A stretch of 27,094 bases of DNA, from the NCBI GenBank assembly GCA_040771865.1, contig JAXGZF010000003.1:558001-585094 (forward strand), read 5' to 3'. Origin of the DNA: Desulfobacterales bacterium. Its GTDB lineage: Bacteria; Desulfobacterota; Desulfobacteria; Desulfobacterales; UBA2245. Of the stretch, positions 5,925 to 17,249 are shown piece after piece (position 1 is the stretch's first letter; every line of letters begins with the position of its first letter). The notes under the pieces are model-generated. The model made no database searches. It saw only the letters and a program-made list of their open reading frames with translations, and was not told where the DNA came from. Position numbers and translations under genes: made by a program.

Positions 5925-5961
5925 TTTTTTCAGATATTTCGAGACATTTATCCGGTTTTCG

Positions 5962-5987
5962 CGGAGAAAAACATATGTTTTTCTCCG
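5962..5987. terminator. Perfect 26-bp palindrome between convergent usp and hdrA; probable terminator hairpin
   Basis: CGGAGAAAAACATATGTTTTTCTCCG is its own reverse complement. A T6 tract follows shortly after on the + strand. Confidence 0.65.
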
Positions 5988-6030
5988 TGCCGTTTTTTCG
6001 GGCGCCGCGCCGCTATGGGTAAGGCGCCTA

Positions 6031-8457
6031 TTAAATTTTCCTGTTTTTCGATAGAATTTCAATGGTTCGCGCGATCTCTTCCTCAGACGCCTGCTGCCGG
6101 AGTTTTTCCATTCGATCCATGACGCCGGCGAATCGGATTCCCTCCGCCGCGCTGATCCACTCCAGTTGAAGCCGTTCCGGACGCAGGCCGAGTTTTTCCA
6201 TCTTTTTTTGAACCTTGATCACCCGTTTTTCGGTCCAGTGATTGGCATCAATGTAATGACAATCGCCGATGTGGCACCCGCTGACCAGAATCACCGGCGC
6301 CCCCTTGGCAAAACCATGCCAGATGAATTTTTCATCTACCCGGCCCGAACACATCGTGCGGATCAGCCGGACGCTGGATGGATACTGAAGCCGGGAAACG
6401 CCGGCATAATCGGCGCCCGCGTAAGAACACCAGTTGCAGGCAAAGGCGAGGACTTTTTGATCTGCATTTTCGGCCAGCATTGCATCAATCTGGGACATAA
6501 TCTGCTCATCGGTGAAATGATTCATGATGATCGCGCCAAAGGGACATTCAGCGCCGCAGGTTCCGCACCCGGCGCAGGCCGCGGCATTGATCACGGCCGG
6601 GGTTTTTTTGACTCGGTCCACGGTGATGGCGTTGTAGGGGCATACCTCAGCGCATTTGCCGCAGGACGTGCAATGTTCAGCAACAACCTCGGAAATGATG
6701 GGTTCTGAGCTGATTTCTCCCTTGTGCATCAGCCGTATGGCCCGAGCAGCGGCTGCCGACGCCTGGGTGACGCTGTCCTTGATGTCCTTGGGTCCTTCGG
6801 CGCAACCGGCGTAAAACACGCCCCGGGTGGCCGCATCCACGGGCTGAAGCTTGGGATGGGCTTCCAGAAAAAATCCGTCCGGCGTCAGCTGAAGCCCCAG
6901 CATTTCCTGAATCCGCTGAGTGCTTGCCGACGGCTTTATGCCCAGAGCCAGAACCAGCATGTCGAGTTCATGATATTCCAGGTTCCCGGTCGCCGTGTTT
7001 TCAACTGCCACCCTGAGGCGCTTGTCGGAGAGCTCCTCAACCGTACCGGGCAGTCCCCGAAGATACTTGACTCCGAATCTTCGGCTGCGCAGATACAGGT
7101 CCTCGAATCCTTTTCCGAATGCGCGGATATCGATGTAAAAAACCTTGATATCCATATCCGGGTAATGCTCCCTGAGCAGGAGGGTGCTCTTGACCGTATT
7201 CATGCAGCAGATGTTGGAGCAATATTCCGCGCCCTTTCTTGCCGAACGCGATCCGACGCACTGAATGAACCCGACCGATGCGGGACGCCTTCGGTCCGTA
7301 GGCCGGATCAGTTCGCCCTTGGAAGGACCGCCGGCATTGACCAGCCGTTCAAACTCAAAACTGGTCAGCACGTTTTCAAACCGGGTATACCCGTATTCAT
7401 CGAGTTCCGTGGGATCATAGACATCAAGACCCGTCGCCACCACAATGGAACCGACCTTTTCCACAACCTCCTCATCCGACATGCCGAAATCAATGCAGCC
7501 TTTGGCGCAGGCGGTCACGCACTTGGCGCATACCGAGGGGGTGTGCCCCAGACATTCATTGATGTTGATCACATAGGACGAGGGCACCGCCTGGGGAAAG
7601 GGAGAGTAGATCGCCCTGCGGGAGGAAAGGCCGAGATTGAATTCATCCGGGCGCACCACCGGGCAGACCTTGGCGCATTCACCGCAGGCCGTGCATTGGG
7701 CTTCATCGACGTACCGGGCCTTTTTGACGATTCGAACCTCGAAATTGCCGACATAGCCTTTTACATCCGCCACTTCGCTGAGCGTGTAGAGTTTAATTCT
7801 GGGATGTCGACCGACATCCGTCATCTTCGGCCCGAGAATTCAGATGGAACAATCCATGGTGGGAAAGGTCTTGTCCAGCTGTGCCATGACTCCGCCGATC
7901 GACGGTTTTTTTTCCACCATGACCACCTCGTAGCCGTTGTCAGCCAGATCCAGGGCGGACTGAATGCCGGCCACGCCACCGCCGATCACCAGGGCCCTTC
8001 GGGTCAGCGGAAGGATCTGCTCGGTCAGAGGACGAAGATGCCGGACCCGTCCGACCGCCATTCTGACCAGATCCATCGCCTTTTCCGTGGCACCCTGCCG
8101 GTCGTGCATGTGCACCCAGCTGCACTGTTCGCGCAGATTGGCCATCTCCAGCATATAGGGATTGAGCCCGACCGACTGGACCATCTGCCGGAAGGTCGTT
8201 TCGTGAAGCCGGGGAGAACACGAGGCCACCACGATGCGGTCCAGGCCGTATTCAAGAATGTCCGACTTCATCTCCTGCTGGCCCGGCTCCGAACAGGAAT
8301 AGGTGACGCTGCGAGCGACGACGACGTTCGGCAGATTTTCCGCAATTTCGGCCACTTTTTTGCAATCGACCGTCTGAGCGATGTTCAAACCGCACTGACA
8401 GACGTAAACGCCGATTCGCGGTTCCTGGGTCGCCGGGGTTGTATTCTTGTCTTCCAT
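6031..8457 (-). CDS. hdrA: Heterodisulfide reductase subunit A with fused C-terminal MvhD domain; selenoprotein (Sec206 at TGA 7840-7842), 808 aa
   Basis: Track ORFs 7840..8529 and 6031..7824 are in the same frame and join as KTFPTMDCSI-TGA-ILGPKM (HdrA consensus KTFPTxDCxxCILxPK). Also IGVYVCQCG, VIGGGVAG, CVGSR..YCSNICC, two 2x[4Fe-4S] segments and MvhD motifs CNWCSYAGAD / MCSGRVD / GCHIGDCHY. ATG 8457 with SD GGAAGG. Confidence 0.92.
7795..7842 (-). promoter_or_regulatory. Bacterial SECIS element with its UGA codon
   Basis: mRNA: UGA-AUUCUCGGGCCGAAGAUGAC-GGAUGUC-GGUC-GACAUCC-CAGAAUU. A perfect 7-bp upper stem closes a G-initiated 4-nt loop 27 nt after UGA, with possible basal AAUUCU/AGAAUU pairing. 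Confidence 0.85.
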
Positions 8458-8519
8458 TGTCTTTCCTTCCAAGTTGAAATACGCGGATAATTCGGCCGGA
8501 TTGTCCGCAACACATCCGT

Positions 8520-10103
8520 TTAAGCCCAATAAATGGATTGCGCTATCAGGCTGGTCAGGTCCTTAACCTCCATGCTCAGACTTTGGCCCAGAAAGGGATC
8601 TTCCATGGCGCATTTGAGGTGAATCTGGCATTTGGGACACGCGGTTACCAGCATGTCTCTGCCGCCGGCTCTGGCCTGCCTCAAACGATTGACCTGCATG
8701 GCTTTTACGTAGGCATCGCAGCCGTTCCATGCGCATCCTCCGCAGCATATGGGACCGGTTTCGCTTTCACTGATTTCCCGGAAGCTTCGGGCCTTGAGAT
8801 GCCCGATGAGTTTTCGGGGAAGCGGCTTCAGTTCCGCTTCCTGAAGCAGGCGGCAGGGGTCCTGAAAAGTCAGGTCGGCGTCTATGGGTTTAAAATCGAC
8901 GGCGCCCTTTTCGATTTCCCGGTTCAGAAAATCGTACAGATGGATCACCTTGAATTCTGTTTCGATTCCGTGGCGCGGATAATCCACGGCAAGCGTCCGG
9001 TAGCATTCCGGACAGGCGGTGATCACCTGCTCGGCGCCGGAGGCATGGATGGCTTCGGCGTTCAAAACGGCGAGTTTTCGAAATCCCCTCTCATCTCCGG
9101 TCCATAGCAGGTCATGGCCGCAGCATCGTTCGTTGGAAAGCACGGATGGCTGAACATCGAAAAAATTGAGCAAACGAAGGGAATCCAGAAGAATATTCTG
9201 GGTCTGGGGTCCGAGAAATTTTCGAAAGAAGATGTCGAAATAAGGAGCGCAGCCTCCGAAGAACAGAATCTTGCTTTTCATTTTCAGATGAATTGAGTCG
9301 GGGAGCCAGGACCATCGATCCATATTCAGGGAAGCCGAACCCTGAACCCGCATCATCGACTGGAAAAAGCCACCGTGAGGTTCGTGGACTTTAATGCCGG
9401 CATCCTGGTAGATTTCACGGACCTCTCGAACAAATTCGGGAAAATTGACCGCCCGGGGACAGCGCTCATAGCACCGGCCGCAGGTCAGGCACGACCAGAT
9501 CCCTTCGAACACCATTGGAGAGTCGATATCTCCGGCAATCATGGCACTGGCAACCGCCCTGGGAGTAAAGGACTTTCCGGTCAGGGACAGGGGGCAGGCC
9601 GAAGAACACTTTCCGCAATCCTGGCACGAAAAGATATCGTATTTCGAAACCGCCCGCGCCACCCGCTGCACATCGACAGCTTTTGTCGCCGGCTTTTCGC
9701 TTGCCTCGACCGGACTTTTGTCAAGCATCCGTATTTCCTTGGCGAATGTATTCAGAAATTCAAAAAGCCCTTCCGCGTCGTCCGGCAAAAAGGTGGCCAG
9801 GCGAAGCCGTTGTTCTCCCACTCCCATGATGTTTAAAATCCGGCGGGCGTCATCTGTATTTTCCTGGGCCGTCAAGGCGCCGTTTCCGTAACGGCAGGAA
9901 CCGGGTCGGCATCCGACCAGTGCCACGCCATCCGCGCCTCTTTCAAACGCCTTGATAAGCAGGGCCTTGCTGATGCGTCCGGTACAGGGAATCCTCACCA
10001 TTTTGATTTCAGCGGGAATTTTGGCTCTCCGATCCTGAAGCGTTTGGAACGCCACATGAGGCCCCCAGTTGCACAGAAATAATATAATATTGAAATCGTT
10101 CAT
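8520..10103 (-). CDS. MvhD-HdrD fusion: N-terminal MvhD domain, 2x[4Fe-4S] and two CCG domains (527 aa)
   Basis: FLCNWG...IPCTGRI...GADGVALVGCRPGSCRYGNG; CQDCGKCSSACP and CLTCGRCYERCP; CCG domains GGC..ERCCG..TACPEC and DPC..ICCGG..TACPKC. Start moved to ATG 10103 to remove the overlap with the upstream gene. Confidence 0.88.
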   Translation of the reverse strand: MNDFNIILFLCNWGPHVAFQTLQDRRAKIPAEIKMVRIPCTGRISKALLIKAFERGADGVALVGCRPGSCRYGNGALTAQENTDDARRILNIMGVGEQRLRLATFLPDDAEGLFEFLNTFAKEIRMLDKSPVEASEKPATKAVDVQRVARAVSKYDIFSCQDCGKCSSACPLSLTGKSFTPRAVASAMIAGDIDSPMVFEGIWSCLTCGRCYERCPRAVNFPEFVREVREIYQDAGIKVHEPHGGFFQSMMRVQGSASLNMDRWSWLPDSIHLKMKSKILFFGGCAPYFDIFFRKFLGPQTQNILLDSLRLLNFFDVQPSVLSNERCCGHDLLWTGDERGFRKLAVLNAEAIHASGAEQVITACPECYRTLAVDYPRHGIETEFKVIHLYDFLNREIEKGAVDFKPIDADLTFQDPCRLLQEAELKPLPRKLIGHLKARSFREISESETGPICCGGCAWNGCDAYVKAMQVNRLRQARAGGRDMLVTACPKCQIHLKCAMEDPFLGQSLSMEVKDLTSLIAQSIYWA

Positions 10104-10135
10104 TTTTTCACAATAAAAGCATCTTGTTTTACGTT

Positions 10136-13100
10136 TCAGTCGGTCAATTCGGAATTTCCCAGCACTTCTTCCAGCATTTGCTCCAGATAGGCCTGGTTTC
10201 GATAAGGGCTGTCCGCGGCACCGGTGGGGCATACCGAAATGCAGTTGCCGCATCCCTTGCACAGGGCGGCGTCAACCGTGGAGGTCCAGATGCCCAGCTC
10301 GTTTCGCTTCATTGTAACCGCCTGATAGGGACATGCCTGAAGGCATCGACCGCACCCCCTGCACAGCTTTTCATCCACCTGTACGGTAAAACCCTTGCTC
10401 TGCCTCGGCCCACGGGGCATGACCGCGGCGGCGAGCACGGCAGCCGCCTCTCCTTTCTGGCGCTTTGAGACCTGAACGCGCGGAGGGTCCGCCAGATAGA
10501 GTCCCGGAATTGCGGTTGAGCCCGGATAGAGAAAGGGAATGCCGTGCTGTCCGGATTCCTGAATGGCGGCATCGACGTAGATGCCGGGCAGTCCTTCCTG
10601 ATGAATATACTGAATGTTTTTTCTGGCCCGCTCGCCGATAATCACCGCCCCGGCCTGCATGATCTGTTCGGTGCCTTCGGCCTGAATCCGGATTCGAAAA
10701 TCGCCCAGAGTTCCGCTCAACTCCATGACGGAAGCCTGTTCCCAGCGGGTCAGATTGGGGCAATCCTGCAATTGTCGGGGAAGGTTTGCGCCCGATTCCA
10801 GCCAGACAATATCCATGCCGGCCCTGGCCAGGGTCCAAGCGCTGTGAAGGGAAGCTTCACAGTCTCCGATCACCGCCGTGGTAAAATTATAATTTCTCGC
10901 CGGCACGGAAAAGAGCTTGAGCCGTTTGGCGCGCTTCACCGATCGGTTCATCAGGCGGGCAAACCGGTTCAGGGCCAGTTCTGCATCGTCAACAATGATT
11001 CGAAGCACCTCGCCGCGCAGGTTGCAGGTCTCCACCATGGAGCGGCTGATTCCCGTACCGCTGAACAGGCCGTGTTTCAGGCGGCTTCGCTGATCCGTGC
11101 AGGCGCTGCAAACAAAATTCAGCGGACAGCACACGCAGGATGCCAGCACCAGGCGGGTAATGCCTTTTTGCATCACGGTTTTGACGATATATGCGGTGGT
11201 TTCCGGAAGACAGGCCGCGTTCAGAACTTCCGCATGAACAACGTCCTCGGCCTGATTGAGCGCTTCGATATAGTCATCCATTCCATCGACCCATCCCATC
11301 GAGCGGTTGCATCGGCAGGCGAACACGCCGAGACGGATTTCGGATAAAAGGGCGGGCTCGGGCTGAGAGATCGCCATGGCGTGGCCTCTGGGCCGGTGCG
11401 CGATGTTCTCCAGAAGGCTCATGGCCCGTGCGGCTGCTGCAAACCCCCGCACCATCATGGCGTTGACATCGGTTCTGGTTCCCGGAGGCGCATAGACTCG
11501 AATGACGTCATCCCCCTTGATGGACGGAACAATGTGTGGATCGGCGATAATCAGAACGCCGGCCTGTTCGACCGATTCTTCGCAGACCTGTTGATGCCGG
11601 ATCGCCTTGACCTCTCCGCAGGCTTCGGAGCAAAGCAGGCACTGGGAGCAGATTCCGCACTGAAGACATCTTTCGGATTCAACCTTCACCTGAGGTTCGC
11701 TGAGCCCCAGACAAACCTCCAGAAAATCTTTTTTTCGCACCGCCGCCTGACGTTCGGCAAGCGTCGGGCGGGCATGAAAAGGGATATCGGCGGCAATTTC
11801 CGGAAACGGCCGGTCCTTGGGCCGGGCCGATGCCGGTTGCACTGCATCGGCGGCACCCAGACCGGCGGCAACCGATCGGGCTGATTTTCTTCCATCGGCC
11901 ATGGCCTGCACCACGGAACTCGGACCCGACACGGCATCGCCGGCGGCATACACCCGAGGAATATTGGTTCGGAAAACAGGGTCGGTCCGTATCAGACCCT
12001 CGGCAGACACCTCAAGCCCTTTTACGGCCGCCAGCGCGCCGGTCTGTCCGATGGCCTCAACGGCCGCATCAAAGTCCAGAAAGAACGCTTCGCTTTCTGC
12101 ACCCGGAACGGGCTCGGGAATGCCGCGGGAATCGGGCTTTCCAGGACAAGTTGGGATGCATTGGATCCGCTCGAGTTTTCCGTTGCGGCCGCAAAACGAC
12201 GTCACCTGGGTCAGTTCCCGAATCTGGACGCCTTCTTCCAGAGCCTGCCGAATTTCTTCGGCGTCAGCCGGCATATCCTGCTGCCTGCGTCTGTAGAGAA
12301 TCGTCGGCGCCGCGCCGAGACGAACCGCAGCCCGGGCCGCATCCATGGCGGAATTGCCGCCTCCGATGACGGCCACCCTTACCGGAAGCGATTTGAGTTC
12401 TCCGGAAAAAGCGCTGCGCAAAAATTTCAGGCACGACCAGACGCCTTCCAGTTTTTCGCCCGGAACGCCCAGTTCGCGATCCTTGCAGCTTCCGATGGTC
12501 AGAAGCACAGCATCGAAGCGCTTTCTTAAATTTTCGATATCCTTTTCAGGATCGATCAAAGCATCGGTGTGAAAGGCAACCCCCAGGGAACGAATGTATT
12601 CCAGTTCTCTTTCCAGAATTTCACTTGGAAGCCGGTAGGGGCCGATGGCGTAACGCAGCAGGCCGCCGGCCAGTTTTTCCTTTTCAAAGATGGAAACCGA
12701 AAATCCATATCTGGCCAGGTCCGCGGCGGCGGCCAACCCGGACGGACCCGATCCGACCACTGCAATCTTCTCTTTTCTCGTTGCCAGGGCCGAATCCCTG
12801 GAGCTCATCTCTTCGCAAGCCGTCTCATGATCCGCCAGGAACCGCTTGATTGCCCGAATGGAAACGGGCTCATCCAGCTCCGACCTTCGGCAGGCGGCTT
12901 CGCACGGGTGCGTGCATACCCGCCCGCAGATGCCGGGAAGCACGTTGTCCCGACGGATCAGATCCAGTGCCTCCGCATATCTTCCGACCCGCGTCAAGGC
13001 AAGATAGCCCTGGACATTGACTCCCAGCGGACATTCCTCCTGACAGGGGGGGGACTTTCGTTTGTCGATGACCGCACGGCCGGGCAGGCTTCGTCGCGTT

Positions 13101-13504
13101 TCAAAGTCAACGGCTTTCCGGGCGGAATCAACCGATGCCGGACACGCCTGGACGCAGTTTCCACAAAGGGTGCACCGATCCGGGTCGACAAAAACCGGCC
13201 TTTGCTTCAGACGAATCCTGAATCCCTGAGGCGTGTGCTTGACTGAGGTGATTTCAGCCGGCATGATGCATTGAATCGATGGGTTTCGAAGAATACGGAT
13301 CAGCCCCGGCCGGTGAGCATGATTGAACGGCGCTCCTGAAGGCAGGCGCCATTCCGGCCGGGCCAGTTCGCGGTCCATGTCCGGATTGGCGTCCACCAGA
13401 GTAACGGGAATGCCCAGTTCCCCGAGCTTGTTGGCGGCGGTGATTCCTGCCGGCGTCATGCCGATGATGATCACTCTCTGAAGTCTGTCCTTGGGCCGTT
13501 TCAT
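10136..13504 (-). CDS. HdrL-like multidomain FAD/Fe-S oxidoreductase (degenerate HdrA segments around a GltD/NfnB-like NAD(P)H module)
   Basis: CTLCGNCVQACP; PPCQEECPLG...ICGRVCTHPCEAAC; VVGSGPSG; VIGGGNSAMD; YRR; YAAGDAVSGP; ERCLQCGICSQCLLC; HdrA N-domain-like LGVFACRC...CNLR; C-terminal CRGCGRCLQACP and CKGCGNCISVCP. Confidence 0.85.
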   Translation of the reverse strand: MKRPKDRLQRVIIIGMTPAGITAANKLGELGIPVTLVDANPDMDRELARPEWRLPSGAPFNHAHRPGLIRILRNPSIQCIMPAEITSVKHTPQGFRIRLKQRPVFVDPDRCTLCGNCVQACPASVDSARKAVDFETRRSLPGRAVIDKRKSPPCQEECPLGVNVQGYLALTRVGRYAEALDLIRRDNVLPGICGRVCTHPCEAACRRSELDEPVSIRAIKRFLADHETACEEMSSRDSALATRKEKIAVVGSGPSGLAAAADLARYGFSVSIFEKEKLAGGLLRYAIGPYRLPSEILERELEYIRSLGVAFHTDALIDPEKDIENLRKRFDAVLLTIGSCKDRELGVPGEKLEGVWSCLKFLRSAFSGELKSLPVRVAVIGGGNSAMDAARAAVRLGAAPTILYRRRQQDMPADAEEIRQALEEGVQIRELTQVTSFCGRNGKLERIQCIPTCPGKPDSRGIPEPVPGAESEAFFLDFDAAVEAIGQTGALAAVKGLEVSAEGLIRTDPVFRTNIPRVYAAGDAVSGPSSVVQAMADGRKSARSVAAGLGAADAVQPASARPKDRPFPEIAADIPFHARPTLAERQAAVRKKDFLEVCLGLSEPQVKVESERCLQCGICSQCLLCSEACGEVKAIRHQQVCEESVEQAGVLIIADPHIVPSIKGDDVIRVYAPPGTRTDVNAMMVRGFAAAARAMSLLENIAHRPRGHAMAISQPEPALLSEIRLGVFACRCNRSMGWVDGMDDYIEALNQAEDVVHAEVLNAACLPETTAYIVKTVMQKGITRLVLASCVCCPLNFVCSACTDQRSRLKHGLFSGTGISRSMVETCNLRGEVLRIIVDDAELALNRFARLMNRSVKRAKRLKLFSVPARNYNFTTAVIGDCEASLHSAWTLARAGMDIVWLESGANLPRQLQDCPNLTRWEQASVMELSGTLGDFRIRIQAEGTEQIMQAGAVIIGERARKNIQYIHQEGLPGIYVDAAIQESGQHGIPFLYPGSTAIPGLYLADPPRVQVSKRQKGEAAAVLAAAVMPRGPRQSKGFTVQVDEKLCRGCGRCLQACPYQAVTMKRNELGIWTSTVDAALCKGCGNCISVCPTGAADSPYRNQAYLEQMLEEVLGNSELTD

Positions 13505-14091
13505 GCAATCGCTCCTGTCTGTCCGGCGGCTTTTTTCTCCCTGCCTTTCAAAACGGCAAGGCCGTGATCGTATCCTTTGGCAAATGCCGTCAGATTCAGT
13601 TCCTCGGTTCCCCTGGGAACGCTCTGGCGAATGGTTTCTCTGGCTGCGTTCATGGAGACGACCGGCATTGCGGCTGTCAGAAAGCCTATCATGATGATGT
13701 TGGCCATCATTTTCTGTCCCAGGGCCTCGGCCATTCGGGTCGCCGGCACGTGGTATGCATCGAAATCTCCAGGGACCGGCTTTACGAGGTCTTCGTCCAC
13801 GATCAGGACGCCTTTCTCTTTAAGCTGTTCGATATATTTTTGATATCCTCCCTGAGACATGCAGATCAGAATGTCGGCCTGGTTTACATAGGGATAGTGA
13901 ATGGGATTTGCACTGATGATCACCTGAGCGCTGCATGCGCCGCCCCGGGACTCCGGTCCGTAGGACTGTACCAGAGTGCTCTCGTTTCCATCCACAAGGG
14001 ACGCGGCTTTTCCGATGATGCGGCCCAATAGAATGATTCCCTGGCCCCCGAAACCCGTTACGATGATTTTTGTCTCTGCGAGATCCTGCAT
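13501..14091 (-). CDS. korC: 2-oxoacid:ferredoxin oxidoreductase gamma subunit
   Basis: TGFGGQGIIL, QSYGPESRGG, ANIIMIG. ATGA overlap with the next gene. Confidence 0.92.
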   Translation of the reverse strand: MQDLAETKIIVTGFGGQGIILLGRIIGKAASLVDGNESTLVQSYGPESRGGACSAQVIISANPIHYPYVNQADILICMSQGGYQKYIEQLKEKGVLIVDEDLVKPVPGDFDAYHVPATRMAEALGQKMMANIIMIGFLTAAMPVVSMNAARETIRQSVPRGTEELNLTAFAKGYDHGLAVLKGREKKAAGQTGAIA

Positions 14092-14136
14092 ACGCCTCTA
14101 TTTTTACAATTCGATTGTGTTTTGCCGGTTCAAAAC

Positions 14137-14979
14137 CTACTCGGCCAATCTGTAGATTTTTTCATACTGTTCAAAAAAGGTCGGCTTGTGAATGTCCACG
14201 AATTTGCCGAGAATGATGCCTTTTTTGAAATCGATGTCCAATTCGGACGGGGAGGCCCCGTTCTTGATCATGGTTTTGTCCCGGTACATCGTCAGCGTAT
14301 CCAAGGGTTTTTCCCTGTTTCTTCGTCCGTAATTGACCGGGCAGGGGGAAAGGGCCTCGATAAAAGCGAATCCCGGCTTGACCAGCGCTTCTTTAATGGA
14401 TTCCACCAGATCCCGAATATGCAGCATGGTCCATCGGGCTACATAGACCGCCCCGGCGGCATACGCCAGAAGCGGAAGGTTGAAGGGCTTTTCCGGATTT
14501 CCCAAAGGCGTGGTGGTTGTGCGGGAACCTTCGGGAGTGGTGGCTGCGACCTGGCCTCCGGTCATTCCGTAATTCAGGTTGTTGACGCACACCACGGTGA
14601 TGTCGATGTTCCGGCGGGCTGCATGGATGAAATGATTGCCGCCGATGGCAAAAAGATCCCCGTCTCCGCTGAACACGATGACCTTCAGCTCCGGGTTGGC
14701 CAGCTTGACTCCGGTGGCAAACGGAATGGCCCGGCCATGGGTTGTGTGAAAGGAATCCAGATTGGCGTATCCGGCCGCCCGGCCCGAACATCCGATTCCG
14801 GACACCATAACGATCTTGTCCTGATCGATTCCGCTGCTCTGAATGGCTGTCAGACAGGCCGAAAATACCGTTCCGATTCCACAGCCCGGGCACCAGATAT
14901 GCGGCATGCGATCCTTTCGAACCATATCGTCCAGAGGATGGGCCTTTTCCTTGCCGGCTTTTTTAAGACGATCGGCCAT
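14137..14979 (-). CDS. korB: 2-oxoacid:ferredoxin oxidoreductase beta subunit (TPP-binding)
   Basis: WCPGCG, SGIGCSGR, HGRAIP, GDGD...NNLNYGMTGGQ, SPCP. Confidence 0.94.
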   Translation of the reverse strand: MADRLKKAGKEKAHPLDDMVRKDRMPHIWCPGCGIGTVFSACLTAIQSSGIDQDKIVMVSGIGCSGRAAGYANLDSFHTTHGRAIPFATGVKLANPELKVIVFSGDGDLFAIGGNHFIHAARRNIDITVVCVNNLNYGMTGGQVAATTPEGSRTTTTPLGNPEKPFNLPLLAYAAGAVYVARWTMLHIRDLVESIKEALVKPGFAFIEALSPCPVNYGRRNREKPLDTLTMYRDKTMIKNGASPSELDIDFKKGIILGKFVDIHKPTFFEQYEKIYRLAE

Positions 14980-14982
14980 GAT

Positions 14983-16128
14983 CTAAAAAGCCTCCTTTAT
15001 TCGCTCCACTACACGTTGCGGCGAAATCAGCGTTCCGCCCGCATGCCCCGCCAGAAATGCCGGGGCCCTTCCGGCAGCGCACCGTTCCACCTCCAGATGG
15101 ATCTGCCCCAGATTGATTTCCACCGTCACAAAGCCTTTTACCCGTAAGGCCAGCGACCGGATCAGCGCTTCGGGAAAGGGCCAGACCGTCAGAAGCCGCA
15201 GGAGCCCGGCCTTGATTCCCTGCTTGCGGGCCATGTCCACGGCAGCCAGTGCGGTTCGCCCGGAGACGCCGTAAGAAACCAAGGCGATTTCAGCGTCCTC
15301 CATTCGATAACTTTCCGTTTGAATGATATCGTCCAGGTGGTTTCGAATCTTTCCGACGATCCGGTTCACCATGTTTTCCTGGGCTTCCACGGTCAAGGCC
15401 GGATATCCCCGTTCGTCATGGGTCAGGCCGGTCACATGAATCCGGTAACCATCTCCGGCCGCCGGCATCGGCGCTGCGCCGTTTTCAAAGGGTGAAAAAA
15501 GTCTGAAGCGGTCCTTTCGTCCTCTGGGTTTGTTTCGGGGTGTAGTCTCGATCTTTCGGGCATCGGGAATGACGACCCGTTCGCTCATATGGCCGATCAC
15601 CTCGTCCGTCATGACCAAGACCGGCGTTCGATATTTTTCGCTCAGATTAAAGGCCCGAATGGTCTGGTAAAAAAGCTCCTGAGGAGATGAGGGCGCCAGC
15701 GCGATGATTTCATAATGTCCGTGGGATCCCCACCGGGCCTGCATCATGTCTCCCTGGGCAACCTGAGTGGGCAGACCGGTGGACGGCCCGCCGCGCTGGA
15801 CATTGACCACGACGCAGGGGGTTTCCGTGCTGATTCCCAGCCCGATATTTTCCATCATCAGACTGAATCCCGGGCCCGAGGTCGCGGTCATGCTCTTTTT
15901 CCCCGCCCAGGAAGCCCCGAGCACCGAAGCCATGGCGGCAATCTCGTCTTCCATCTGAATGAAAATACCACCCATCTCGGGAAGCCTTTCTGCCATATGT
16001 TCGGCAATCTCGGTCGCCGGGGTGATGGGGTATCCTCCAAAAAATCTGCACCCGGCCGCCAGGGCCCCCTCGGCGCAGGCCACATCTCCGGTGATGAAAT
16101 GTTTTCCAGTTAATAAAGCTGATTTCAT
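14983..16128 (-). CDS. korA: 2-oxoacid:ferredoxin oxidoreductase alpha subunit
   Basis: GYPITPATEI, QMEDEIA, TATSGPGFSLM, QRGGPSTGLPT, VEINLGQ. Start moved to ATG 16128 (MKSALLTG), just after the delta-subunit stop. Confidence 0.94.
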   Translation of the reverse strand: MKSALLTGKHFITGDVACAEGALAAGCRFFGGYPITPATEIAEHMAERLPEMGGIFIQMEDEIAAMASVLGASWAGKKSMTATSGPGFSLMMENIGLGISTETPCVVVNVQRGGPSTGLPTQVAQGDMMQARWGSHGHYEIIALAPSSPQELFYQTIRAFNLSEKYRTPVLVMTDEVIGHMSERVVIPDARKIETTPRNKPRGRKDRFRLFSPFENGAAPMPAAGDGYRIHVTGLTHDERGYPALTVEAQENMVNRIVGKIRNHLDDIIQTESYRMEDAEIALVSYGVSGRTALAAVDMARKQGIKAGLLRLLTVWPFPEALIRSLALRVKGFVTVEINLGQIHLEVERCAAGRAPAFLAGHAGGTLISPQRVVERIKEAF

Positions 16129-16133
16129 CGGTT

Positions 16134-16430
16134 TTAAGTTTCCCTGATCGTATCGGTGGTTGCCGAAACTTCCGGCTGAGCCTCGGTGGAATAGATGGCG
16201 AATTCCGGGCAGATGATTTCGCAAAAACGGCAATTGACGCAGTCATCGGCCCGAATGACCTCCGGGGGGTGATATCCCTTGGCGTTGAAACGCGAAGAAA
16301 TATTCAGCACGTTTCGAGGACAGAAGGCGATGCAATACCCGCATCCTTTGCATCGATCCTCAAAAATGGTAAGTATTCCCCGCGATACCTGAATTGCATC
16401 GATATCCAGAGGAACCCTCCAAAAATTCAT
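16134..16430 (-). CDS. korD: 2-oxoacid:ferredoxin oxidoreductase delta subunit (2x[4Fe-4S] ferredoxin)
   Basis: CKGCGYCIAFCP and CVNCRFCEIICPEFAI, plus NAKGYHP. SD GGAG upstream. Confidence 0.9.
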   Translation of the reverse strand: MNFWRVPLDIDAIQVSRGILTIFEDRCKGCGYCIAFCPRNVLNISSRFNAKGYHPPEVIRADDCVNCRFCEIICPEFAIYSTEAQPEVSATTDTIRET

Positions 16431-16832
16431 AACCCTCTCCTGTGCATTTTTTGTTAATATGAATTTAAACGCCTTTTATAATTCAAAAACCTTTATACTA
16501 TTTTAGGATCATGTCAAGAAATATGTTAAACAACCTCGATTAAACGAATCAACTCATTTACTTTCAGGGGGGGTAAATAAAAATCCATTCAAAATACGCT
16601 CGCCGGAATTCAAAACAAATTTCATCCATCGGGATTCTCGGAATGATTCAGGAGTTCAACCCGAATGTATTCCAGATGCCGTCTTATTTAAATGAAGACT
16701 TCAGGGCTTTCATTAGGGCGCTACCTTTATATATAAATTGAAACGGGAAAGATCCGGGGGAATATTCCAAATGGAGGCCGTCGATCCGGTTTGTGAATCG
16801 GATCGATTTTCCTTTGAATTCAACAAAAAGAG

Positions 16833-16861: not shown

Positions 16862-16920
16862 CGCCCAATCCTTTAAAGGGCCTTGCGGCTCTTTTTAAAT
16901 TTCACAAGGGGGTGATGAGA

Positions 16921-17199
16921 TTGATTTGTAATACCGTACGCAAAGGTCAGGAATGCGCTTTGATGACCGCAAAAGGATGTTCTTATAATGGTGGATTTTG
17001 CCATCCGGTCGTGGAACCCTGCGATGGATGCGGCCGAAGGACAGAAATCGAGGGTCAGTGGTACTGTACTGCGTGCCCCGAGCCGGCGCTGAAATGGAAA
17101 AATGGAAACTGCAACCTGGCGACCCATATTGCCGCAGCAGCGGTCGCAAAGACGAAGATCAATCCGCTGAAAGCATCCAAGCGCGGCGGCAAAAAATAA
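16921..17199 (+). CDS. PxxKW-family cysteine-rich small protein
   Basis: Nine Cys, PEPALKW, CNLATH and basic tail KINPLKASKR. SD-like AAGGGGG upstream. Start could be 16912, 16915 or TTG 16921. Confidence 0.82.
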   Translation: MICNTVRKGQECALMTAKGCSYNGGFCHPVVEPCDGCGRRTEIEGQWYCTACPEPALKWKNGNCNLATHIAAAAVAKTKINPLKASKRGGKK

Positions 17200-17217: not shown

Positions 17218-17249
17218 AAACCCCGCTCGCGTCGAGCGGGGTTTTTTTT
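17218..17249 (+). terminator. Rho-independent terminator after the PxxKW gene
   Basis: AAACCCCGCTCG-CGT-CGAGCGGGGTTT running into a T8 tract. Confidence 0.9.

Follow-up and report, generated by a model that had tools for sequence, protein, structure and literature searches.

The 27,094-nt stretch of Desulfobacterales DNA analysed here (the window) carries on its minus strand, from 16430 to 6031, a block of seven open reading frames in the order korD, korA, korB, korC, hdrL, mvhD-hdrD and Sec-hdrA-mvhD, where Sec denotes selenocysteine. The first four specify a 2-oxoacid:ferredoxin oxidoreductase (OFOR), Kor, and the last three an Hdr-type set. A preliminary description, made from the DNA sequence, had reported seven co-oriented genes separated by short gaps; the gene coordinates and the recomputed successive gaps (5, 3, 45, -4, 32 and 62 nt) agree with it exactly. 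The features of the block and its ends are as follows.

16134-16430, minus strand: korD, delta subunit, ferredoxin-like with 2x[4Fe-4S], 98 aa.
14983-16128, minus strand: korA, alpha subunit, 381 aa.
14137-14979, minus strand: korB, beta subunit, thiamine pyrophosphate (TPP) and [4Fe-4S], 280 aa.
13501-14091, minus strand: korC, gamma subunit, 196 aa; ends in an ATGA overlap with the start of hdrL.
10136-13504, minus strand: hdrL, 1122 aa; an HdrA-like frame with an inserted GltD/NfnB-like FAD/NAD(P)H module.
8520-10103, minus strand: mvhD-hdrD fusion, 527 aa; an MvhD [2Fe-2S] domain, an HdrC-like 2x[4Fe-4S] domain and two HdrB-like CCG domains.
6031-8457, minus strand: hdrA-mvhD, 808 aa, a selenoprotein with one in-frame TGA.
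7840-7842, minus strand: the in-frame UGA within hdrA-mvhD, read as selenocysteine U206.
7803-7818, minus strand: hairpin GGAUGYC-GGUC-GRCAUCC, resembling a selenocysteine insertion sequence (SECIS), 22-41 nt after the UGA.
16500-16529, minus strand: sigma-70-like promoter match TTAACA-18-TAAAAT from a consensus scan, 10/12 matches, about 70 nt upstream of korD.
5960-5989, no strand assigned: 13-bp A/T-rich palindromic hairpin from the terminator scan, between the convergent ends of usp and hdrA-mvhD.

The promoter-like match, a candidate by its agreement with the consensus, lies in a 440-nt A+T-rich intergenic region upstream of korD, and the korD ATG is preceded by the Shine-Dalgarno sequence GGAGAGG. 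Scanning the minus strand inside the block for terminators gave no match in any intergenic gap; every match returned is weak (3-4 G-C pairs) and sits in a coding region, which bears out the earlier statement that no internal terminator is evident. Downstream of the block, the palindrome at 5960-5989 is followed by a T-run on the plus strand and by none on the minus strand, so its role as terminator of the operon is a tentative assignment.

Domains were assigned with Pfam and NCBIfam models at their curated cut-offs, and structural neighbours were sought among PDB chains. KorA matched the Pfam models POR_N (9e-71) and PFOR_II (6e-20) and the NCBIfam model NF006412, '2-oxoacid:acceptor oxidoreductase subunit alpha' (571.8 bits against a cut-off of 411), and its translation carries the YPITP motif. 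KorB matched TPP_enzyme_C (3e-35) and shows GDG...NN and CxxC motifs, KorC matched Pfam POR (gamma; 4e-34), and KorD matched Fer4_7 (9e-12) and Fer4. Across 17 KorD orthologues, the eight cysteines of the two CxxCxxCxxxCP motifs and the N-terminal residues W4, R5, P7 and D9 are invariant. By these assignments KorDABC is a complete four-subunit 2-oxoacid:ferredoxin oxidoreductase, with its alpha, beta, gamma and delta subunits all recognised.

The sequence does not reveal the substrate, as the preliminary description had said, and the attempt to assign one was abandoned because every substrate-specific NCBIfam model scored below its cut-off. The nearest of these were the 2-oxoglutarate-specific models: NF007206 for alpha (393.7 bits, cut-off 579), NF007207 (2-oxoglutarate ferredoxin oxidoreductase beta) for beta (241.9 bits, cut-off 364) and NF042987 OGOR_delta for delta (66 bits, cut-off 125), the last two being the best NCBIfam matches of KorB and KorD. 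The pyruvate-specific model PorA_Arch scored 99.5 bits against a cut-off of 550. Among solved chains, KorA lies nearest to 1yd7_A (2-keto acid:ferredoxin oxidoreductase alpha; 1.5e-122), 8ys5_A (2-oxoglutarate synthase alpha; 4e-83) and 6n2n_A (4e-63), and matches the PFOR-type chain 9bt4_B at only 6e-14. The enzyme is thus closer, by similarity, to the Kor/2-oxoglutarate-type (and broad-specificity) clade than to the Por/Vor type. The window's genome (G000, 98.3% complete) contains POR_N at six more loci, one of them a 1175-aa PFOR, which suggests that the Kor of the block is an additional, dedicated enzyme.

Simpler arrangements were also observed. On contig C7 of the window's genome (locus L199, 5132-8906, minus strand), an OFOR stands next to an NAD(P)H module. 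One gene there encodes a GltD/NfnB-like protein of 578 aa that ends in a PorD-like ferredoxin domain, and behind it come genes for PorA-like (480 bits) and PorB/VorB-like subunits. In two metagenome-assembled genomes (MAGs), of Ca. Fraserbacteria (L063) and of a delta proteobacterium (L118), a GltD-like gene is followed by a distant korA-like gene of about 29% identity, outside any Hdr context.

HdrL combines Fer4, Fer4_20 and a GltD/NfnB-like Pyr_redox_2 domain with an HdrA-like C-terminus, and the gene after it starts with an MvhD domain, the combination by which HdrL proteins are recognised. Residues 144-639 matched NAD(P)-binding GltD-like families (NF009410, 463 bits), and the module matched the large subunit of NfnI (5jca_L, 2e-83, residues 152-546) and NfnA (9n5u_A, 1e-86); the GltD-like NAD(P)H module of the preliminary description is therefore present and lies inside HdrL. 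Residues 9-123, 710-904 and 990-1101 resemble both the window's own HdrA and 5odc_A. The motifs of the GltD-type module, GSGPAG for FAD and GxGxxA for NAD(P)H, are canonical and invariant in 17 orthologues, and alignments of 10 and 17 orthologues show all cysteines of the Fe-S clusters to be invariant. Taken with the state of the HdrA-like Rossmann motifs described below, the sequence suggests that the chief task of HdrL may be to admit electrons from NAD(P)H and to hold Fe-S clusters, while the classical bifurcating flavin would sit in HdrA.

Database names of HdrL orthologues are generic, for example 'FAD-dependent oxidoreductase' and '4Fe-4S ferredoxin', and its relatives include a protein of Desulfonema ishimotonii at 56% identity. 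In the window, hdrL lacks an in-frame TGA. One in-frame TGA was observed in the orthologues of genomes G274 (contig C12, 72154-75498) and G380 (contig C244, 12791-16102) and at locus L172, and HdrL may be a selenoprotein in some lineages. In the 60%-complete genome G009, two pieces of an HdrL orthologue, corresponding to residues 1-312 (C1:961310-962245, 60%) and 848-1115 (C1:19188-19991, 56%), are separated by about 940 kb of a single contig and could be a split gene or a mis-join.

The mvhD-hdrD product matched FlpD (MvhD; 8e-32), Fer4_8 (2e-10) and, in two stretches, CCG (5e-20), and both C...CCG...CxxC patterns are present in its translation. By these features it is an HdrD-type protein, a fusion of HdrC and HdrB, that takes the place of HdrBC. 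The block and its flanks contain no membrane or cytochrome b gene of the kind that accompanies HdrD in the HdrDE of Methanosarcina, and the protein is of a soluble HdrD-like type. Across the loci described below, mvhD and hdrD are fused in 34 and separate genes in 19, a natural fusion and fission that argues for joint working. With the MvhD domain of HdrA, the Pfam matches confirm the HdrD-type CCG domains and two MvhD domains noted earlier. No hydrogenase, formate dehydrogenase or separate HdrB, HdrC or HdrE gene was found in the window, and the Pfam and NCBIfam assignments of its genes likewise uphold the earlier remark that hydrogenase, formate dehydrogenase and HdrB/C are missing.

The hdrA-mvhD product matched NCBIfam HdrA2 (NF040770, 1194.7 bits against a cut-off of 1100) and, over residues 11-664, a bifurcating HdrA of known structure, 5odc_A, from complexes of the Methanothermococcus/Methanothermobacter type (2e-240). 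Its C-terminus matched the MvhD chain 5odc_D (4e-38, residues 666-781) and FlpD (4e-46, residues 669-785). It is, by these matches, a member of the HdrA2/MvhD-fused HdrA family, and bifurcation activity is predicted for it by homology.

Residue U206 aligns with the second Cys of the DCSIC motif in 5odc_A. The TGA is retained in 47/47 HdrA copies of the cluster that include the region, and in 46/46 distinct sequences all six pairs of the hairpin after it can form. At pair 29/36, U-A occurs in 15 sequences, C-G in 27 and U-G in 4, a compensatory change. The window's genome also encodes tRNA-Sec (contig C8) and SelB (362.6 bits against a cut-off of 242). The UGA has the features of a bacterial selenoprotein gene and, on this comparative evidence, is a genuine and ancient selenocysteine codon, so that the earlier reading of HdrA as a Sec protein is substantiated.

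Conservation of the block was surveyed in two samples, an order-level sample of 40 relatives, from which 12 loci were retrieved, and an even sample of 401 genomes across the phylum, from which 40 HdrL loci were retrieved, with G334 left out. In the order-level sample, 11/40 relatives have a full-length HdrL at 53-88% identity, and two more have diverged ones. Nine of the 12 loci show the complete seven-gene order and two are cut at contig ends; at the last (L049), kor, hdrL and mvhD/hdrD are present and the remaining 1.4 kb holds no hdrA. In the phylum sample, 48/401 genomes matched HdrL at E<=1e-135, 45 of them over the whole protein, while the other three are N-terminal matches to paralogues. 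These 45 carriers fall into group I (24 genomes at 50-57% identity, a count that includes the window's own genome at 100%) and group II (21 genomes at 32-38%). Among the 40 loci, 32 have the complete order korD-A-B-C-hdrL-(mvhD)hdrD-hdrA/mvhD, seven agree with it as far as the contig ends that cut them, and one (L194) has no hdrA within 5 kb. At least three named records carry the block, namely a Deltaproteobacteria MAG, Desulfatitalea sp. UBA4791 and Syntrophobacterales Delta_01.

The split between groups I and II is common to all seven proteins (for example, 70-79% against 51-65% identity for KorA, and 75-80% against 64-69% for HdrA), which indicates that the block has been inherited as a unit. 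The junction between korC and hdrL is also conserved: in 53 loci, the window included, its gap has a median of -4 nt and is at most 0 in 36/53 and at most 60 nt in 52/53, and it is as tight as the korA-korB gap, whose median is likewise -4 nt; these figures rest on heuristic start calls, with a few obvious outliers at cut loci. That kor and hdr stand side by side by chance, or through an accident of one lineage, is an explanation that can cite only the common observation that adjacent genes may have no functional tie. It is contradicted by the retention of the same order, up to contig ends, in all 52 retrieved relative loci, which come from 16 or more families and represent two deeply divergent groups, and by the lack of kor beside paralogous HdrL loci: in the same relatives, 0/16 HdrL-like paralogous loci have korB or korC in their 1.5-kb flanks, in contrast to L020 and L026, which have them, and 14 HdrL-like loci of other lineages (Bathyarchaeia, Bacillota, Chloroflexota and others) show no kor within up to 9 kb. 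We regard chance adjacency as extremely improbable. Failure of the linkage in relatives had been named in the preliminary description as grounds for rejecting its proposal; the synteny survey found that the linkage holds, and with it the single, conserved and tightly spaced seven-gene block with an overlapping korC-hdrL junction. Judged by sequence, the block is genuine, under strong conservation and functionally intact.

Clusters of this type have been published before, though biochemically uncharacterised, and the window's copy is a further instance. The available text of Sedano-Nunez et al. 2018 (PMC5947623) lists an 'HdrAL/POR (Sfum_0012-0018)' of Syntrophobacter fumaroxidans; the supplements of PMC5947623 make no mention of the Sfum_0012-0018 locus tags. 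As described there, this cluster resembles the window's in having seven genes, an HdrA/HdrL-type set and a four-subunit 2-oxoacid:ferredoxin oxidoreductase, in the same phylum and likewise uncharacterised; its gene-for-gene identity with the window's block rests on one sentence of that paper. A Syntrophobacterales MAG (L052) carries the same hdrL-mvhD/hdrD-hdrA part at 51-75% identity. Whereas the S. fumaroxidans cluster is called POR, the window's Kor is nearer to Kor/2-oxoglutarate-type than to PFOR-type chains, and the label 'POR' is not supported for the window's copy by its sequence. No biochemical characterisation of the cluster was found in the literature searched, in keeping with the earlier remark that hdr genes beside oxoacid oxidoreductase genes had been noted without biochemistry. 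As far as its text was available, Dorries 2016 (PMC5109826) describes a Sec-hdrA1-mvhD1-pyridine nucleotide-disulphide oxidoreductase locus in Desulfococcus multivorans, which may belong to the same cluster type. The cluster is not mentioned in Plugge 2012 (PMC3570798), and Nobu 2020 (PMC7382037) contains no relevant material.

A related arrangement occurs in tubeworm symbionts and Thioflavicoccus mobilis, in which korABCD is interspersed with flxABCD-hdrABC (and tfrAB) in clusters of the reductive tricarboxylic acid cycle, according to the accessible parts of Rubin-Blum 2019 (PMC6315080) and Mitchell 2024 (PMC11636981); these propose that Hdr-Flx shuttles electrons directly to KorABCD. Both systems, so far as those texts describe the symbiont one, set a four-subunit Kor inside an Hdr-type, putatively bifurcating set, and both invite the hypothesis that electrons from NAD(P)H are split between the OFOR, directly, and a thiol-dependent acceptor. 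They differ in their parts: NADH input by FlxABCD and a disulfide site on HdrBC in the symbionts, against a fused HdrL and an HdrD-type fusion with MvhD in the window. The hosts also differ (Gammaproteobacteria against the window's phylum), and the window has no acl or tfr genes of the cycle. With no Flx subunits or separate HdrB/HdrC in the window, the likeness to FlxABCD-HdrABC is one of proposed function only.

HdrL was defined in Desulfobacterium autotrophicum HRM2 by Strittmatter 2009 (PMC2702500). In the portion of that paper available, it is, like the window's protein, a soluble fusion of HdrA with the small subunit of glutamate synthase, with an NAD(P)H site and an mvhD gene next to it. 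The D. autotrophicum loci are linked there to dsr and fdh genes, the words 'kor' and 'oxoglutarate' being absent from the text, and HdrL1 and HdrL3 are selenoproteins, unlike the HdrL of the window with its lack of an in-frame TGA. The match of HdrL residues 152-546 to the NADPH/FAD-binding large subunit with two [4Fe-4S] clusters likens it to NfnAB/NfnI (5JCA, 4YLF); it differs in that no NfnA-type small subunit is found in the window and the module is embedded in an HdrA-like frame. The methanogen complexes MvhAGD-HdrABC and Fdh-MvhD-HdrABC(-Fmd) (5ODC, 7BKB, 8RVU) share with the block the HdrA and MvhD matches and the position of the Sec/Cys residue. The window, by comparison, has no hydrogenase or formate dehydrogenase donor and has HdrD in place of HdrBC. 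CoM-S-S-CoB is not expected in bacteria. In the 7BKB complex, the low-potential branch is reportedly wired through a polyferredoxin straight into the CO2-reducing enzyme, and such wiring would be the nearest parallel, in mechanism, to a hard-wired Kor.

We favour, with modest confidence, the reading that the proteins of the block work as one coupled system for flavin-based bifurcation or confurcation, or are at least produced in a fixed ratio. By analogy with the solved Hdr complexes, we infer the electron path, the Kor-Hdr contact, the direction, the disulfide and the 2-oxoacid as follows. KorDABC would form the low-potential arm, and NAD(P)H, the mid-potential donor, would bind the NfnB/GltD-like flavin module of HdrL. 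From there, Fe-S clusters and the MvhD domains with their [2Fe-2S] clusters would carry electrons to the FAD of Sec-HdrA, where the pair would be split. One electron would move uphill in potential to the CCG noncubane clusters of HdrD and on to a protein or small-molecule disulfide, for which DsrC is the likely candidate in the window's genome. The other, falling in potential (about -500 mV), would reach KorD and KorB-TPP by way of ferredoxin-like domains and drive the reductive carboxylation of an acyl-CoA with CO2 to a 2-oxoacid. In reverse, electrons from the 2-oxoacid and from thiols would merge by confurcation to yield NAD(P)H. A stronger form of this proposal, which we put forward tentatively as a possibility, is that Kor is hard-wired into an Hdr supercomplex without free ferredoxin, so that NAD(P)H and a DsrC-type disulfide would drive carboxylation, or the reverse, and DsrC would act outside sulfite reduction.

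Two other explanations were weighed against coupling. In the first, Kor and HdrL/HdrD/HdrA would be two enzymes that share an operon and are linked by free ferredoxin, which Kor makes or consumes, the Hdr part being a ferredoxin:NAD(P)H:disulfide bifurcating oxidoreductase functionally like FlxABCD-HdrABC. In its favour, KorDABC lacks none of the usual subunits, brings its own ferredoxin-like delta subunit and carries no additional domains, and sharing an operon would by itself suffice for co-regulation. Two loci, moreover, keep kor-hdrL-hdrD without hdrA, and the best 120 HdrL relatives show no Kor-Hdr fusion. Set against these points, the korC-hdrL junction is as tight as the korA-korB junction within one enzyme, the gene order is invariant in both divergent groups, which is more than co-regulation usually preserves, and the other OFORs of the genome are available for bulk ferredoxin turnover. 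We consider two separate enzymes rather unlikely.

The second explanation is a non-bifurcating 2-oxoacid:NAD(P)+ oxidoreductase, modelled on the NADH-dependent phenylglyoxylate dehydrogenase type, in which the GltD-like module of HdrL passes Kor electrons to NAD(P)+ and HdrD and HdrA serve regulation or repair. Pairings of an OFOR with GltD-like NAD(P)-binding proteins exist, one of them on contig C7 of the window's genome, and NCBIfam has models for an NADH-dependent phenylglyoxylate dehydrogenase. This route, however, leaves the strict conservation of a Sec-HdrA so close to 5odc_A, of two MvhD domains and of the double-CCG HdrD unexplained, and would, judging from standard potentials, waste about 180 mV in energy-limited anaerobes; it appears improbable.

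Several observations weigh against a coupled bifurcating system. The best 120 HdrL relatives, all of 1086-1158 aa (near-length matches), include no KorC-HdrL or other Kor-Hdr fusion, and the lack of a nearby hdrA at L049 and L194 suggests that HdrA is perhaps not obligatory. The two HdrA-like Rossmann motifs of HdrL deviate from GxGxxG, with the consensus GATPAG and GxSEA, which makes the number of flavins bound by HdrL unclear. The RNA run X15 gave two short, low-depth contigs in hdrL (10627-10964 and 11953-12337), neither of them spanning a gene junction. No experiment on any member of the cluster was found in the literature searched, and S. fumaroxidans lacked these proteins in its proteome under the conditions tested, according to the available text of PMC5947623. 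Four carriers that are 94-100% complete (G268, G297, G375 and G399) have no DsrC match even at E 0.01; three of them belong to one family (96, 96 and 100% complete) and one to another (94%), so no single universal thiol partner is established. Finally, no dsrA was found in 9/45 carriers, the window's genome among them.

In a complex prediction, KorD paired with HdrL residues 1-240 and 560-1122 scored 0.01 against a mark of 0.32, with 17-row alignments and without controls, a result that speaks neither for nor against contact. DNA of the block was present, at a share of at least 0.79, in anaerobic-digester and wastewater sequencing runs of two studies. The RNA run X15 also gave one contig in usp, and DNA carry-over is possible.

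DsrC, which the preliminary description had suggested as the thiol/disulfide linked to HdrD, was matched in 41/45 carriers compared with 223/401 sampled genomes, and dsrA in 36/45 compared with 202/401, the carrier figures in both cross-tabulations being read by eye from lists. The window's genome encodes a DsrC (contig C6:296115-296414) with both C-terminal cysteines, and genes for TusA, a DsrM-like protein (Nitrate_red_gam) and a DsrK-like protein (CCG and Fer4) lie a few genes away (locus L198, C6 289000-303500). Neither dsrA nor dsrB was found in this genome, and no dsrA was found in its congener G001 or in G017 of the nearest family; the lack of dsrA in the window's genus indicates that the block occurs independently of dissimilatory sulfite reduction. 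The suggestion of DsrC thus stands for the window's genome, where it is a plausible and good candidate thiol partner by its sequence and neighbourhood, and does not extend to all carriers. Locus L198 itself looks like a Dsr remnant without sulfite reductase.

If the block does encode one machine, it would represent a new class of flavin-based bifurcating enzyme, in which electrons at -500 mV are fed directly into C-C bond formation or harvested from 2-oxoacid oxidation. Such a system would bear on how energy-starved anaerobes pay for ferredoxin-dependent CO2 fixation and on the role of DsrC outside sulfite reduction. The idea of coupling is already in print, and the window's instance adds comparative detail and no new kind of system; newly added here are a quantified synteny survey with a paralogue control, a Sec codon retained throughout and followed by a covarying hairpin, the conserved overlap at the boundary of korC and hdrL, and the finding that some carrier genomes have no detected dsrAB or no detected DsrC. 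The block is common (45/401 sampled genomes) and strictly conserved and has cultured carriers in the literature, which makes it testable at the bench.

The genes around the block are a convergent usp, hemerythrin, ilvBN, DUF6811, an aminotransferase, a ClC channel, truA and glycogen phosphorylase; they are unrelated to it, which indicates that the block is self-contained. The DUF6811 gene (16912-17199, plus strand; Pfam 5.6e-36) encodes a small cysteine-rich protein and lies divergently, just upstream of the promoter region of the operon; after it, at 17218-17244, comes a strong hairpin of terminator-like form.

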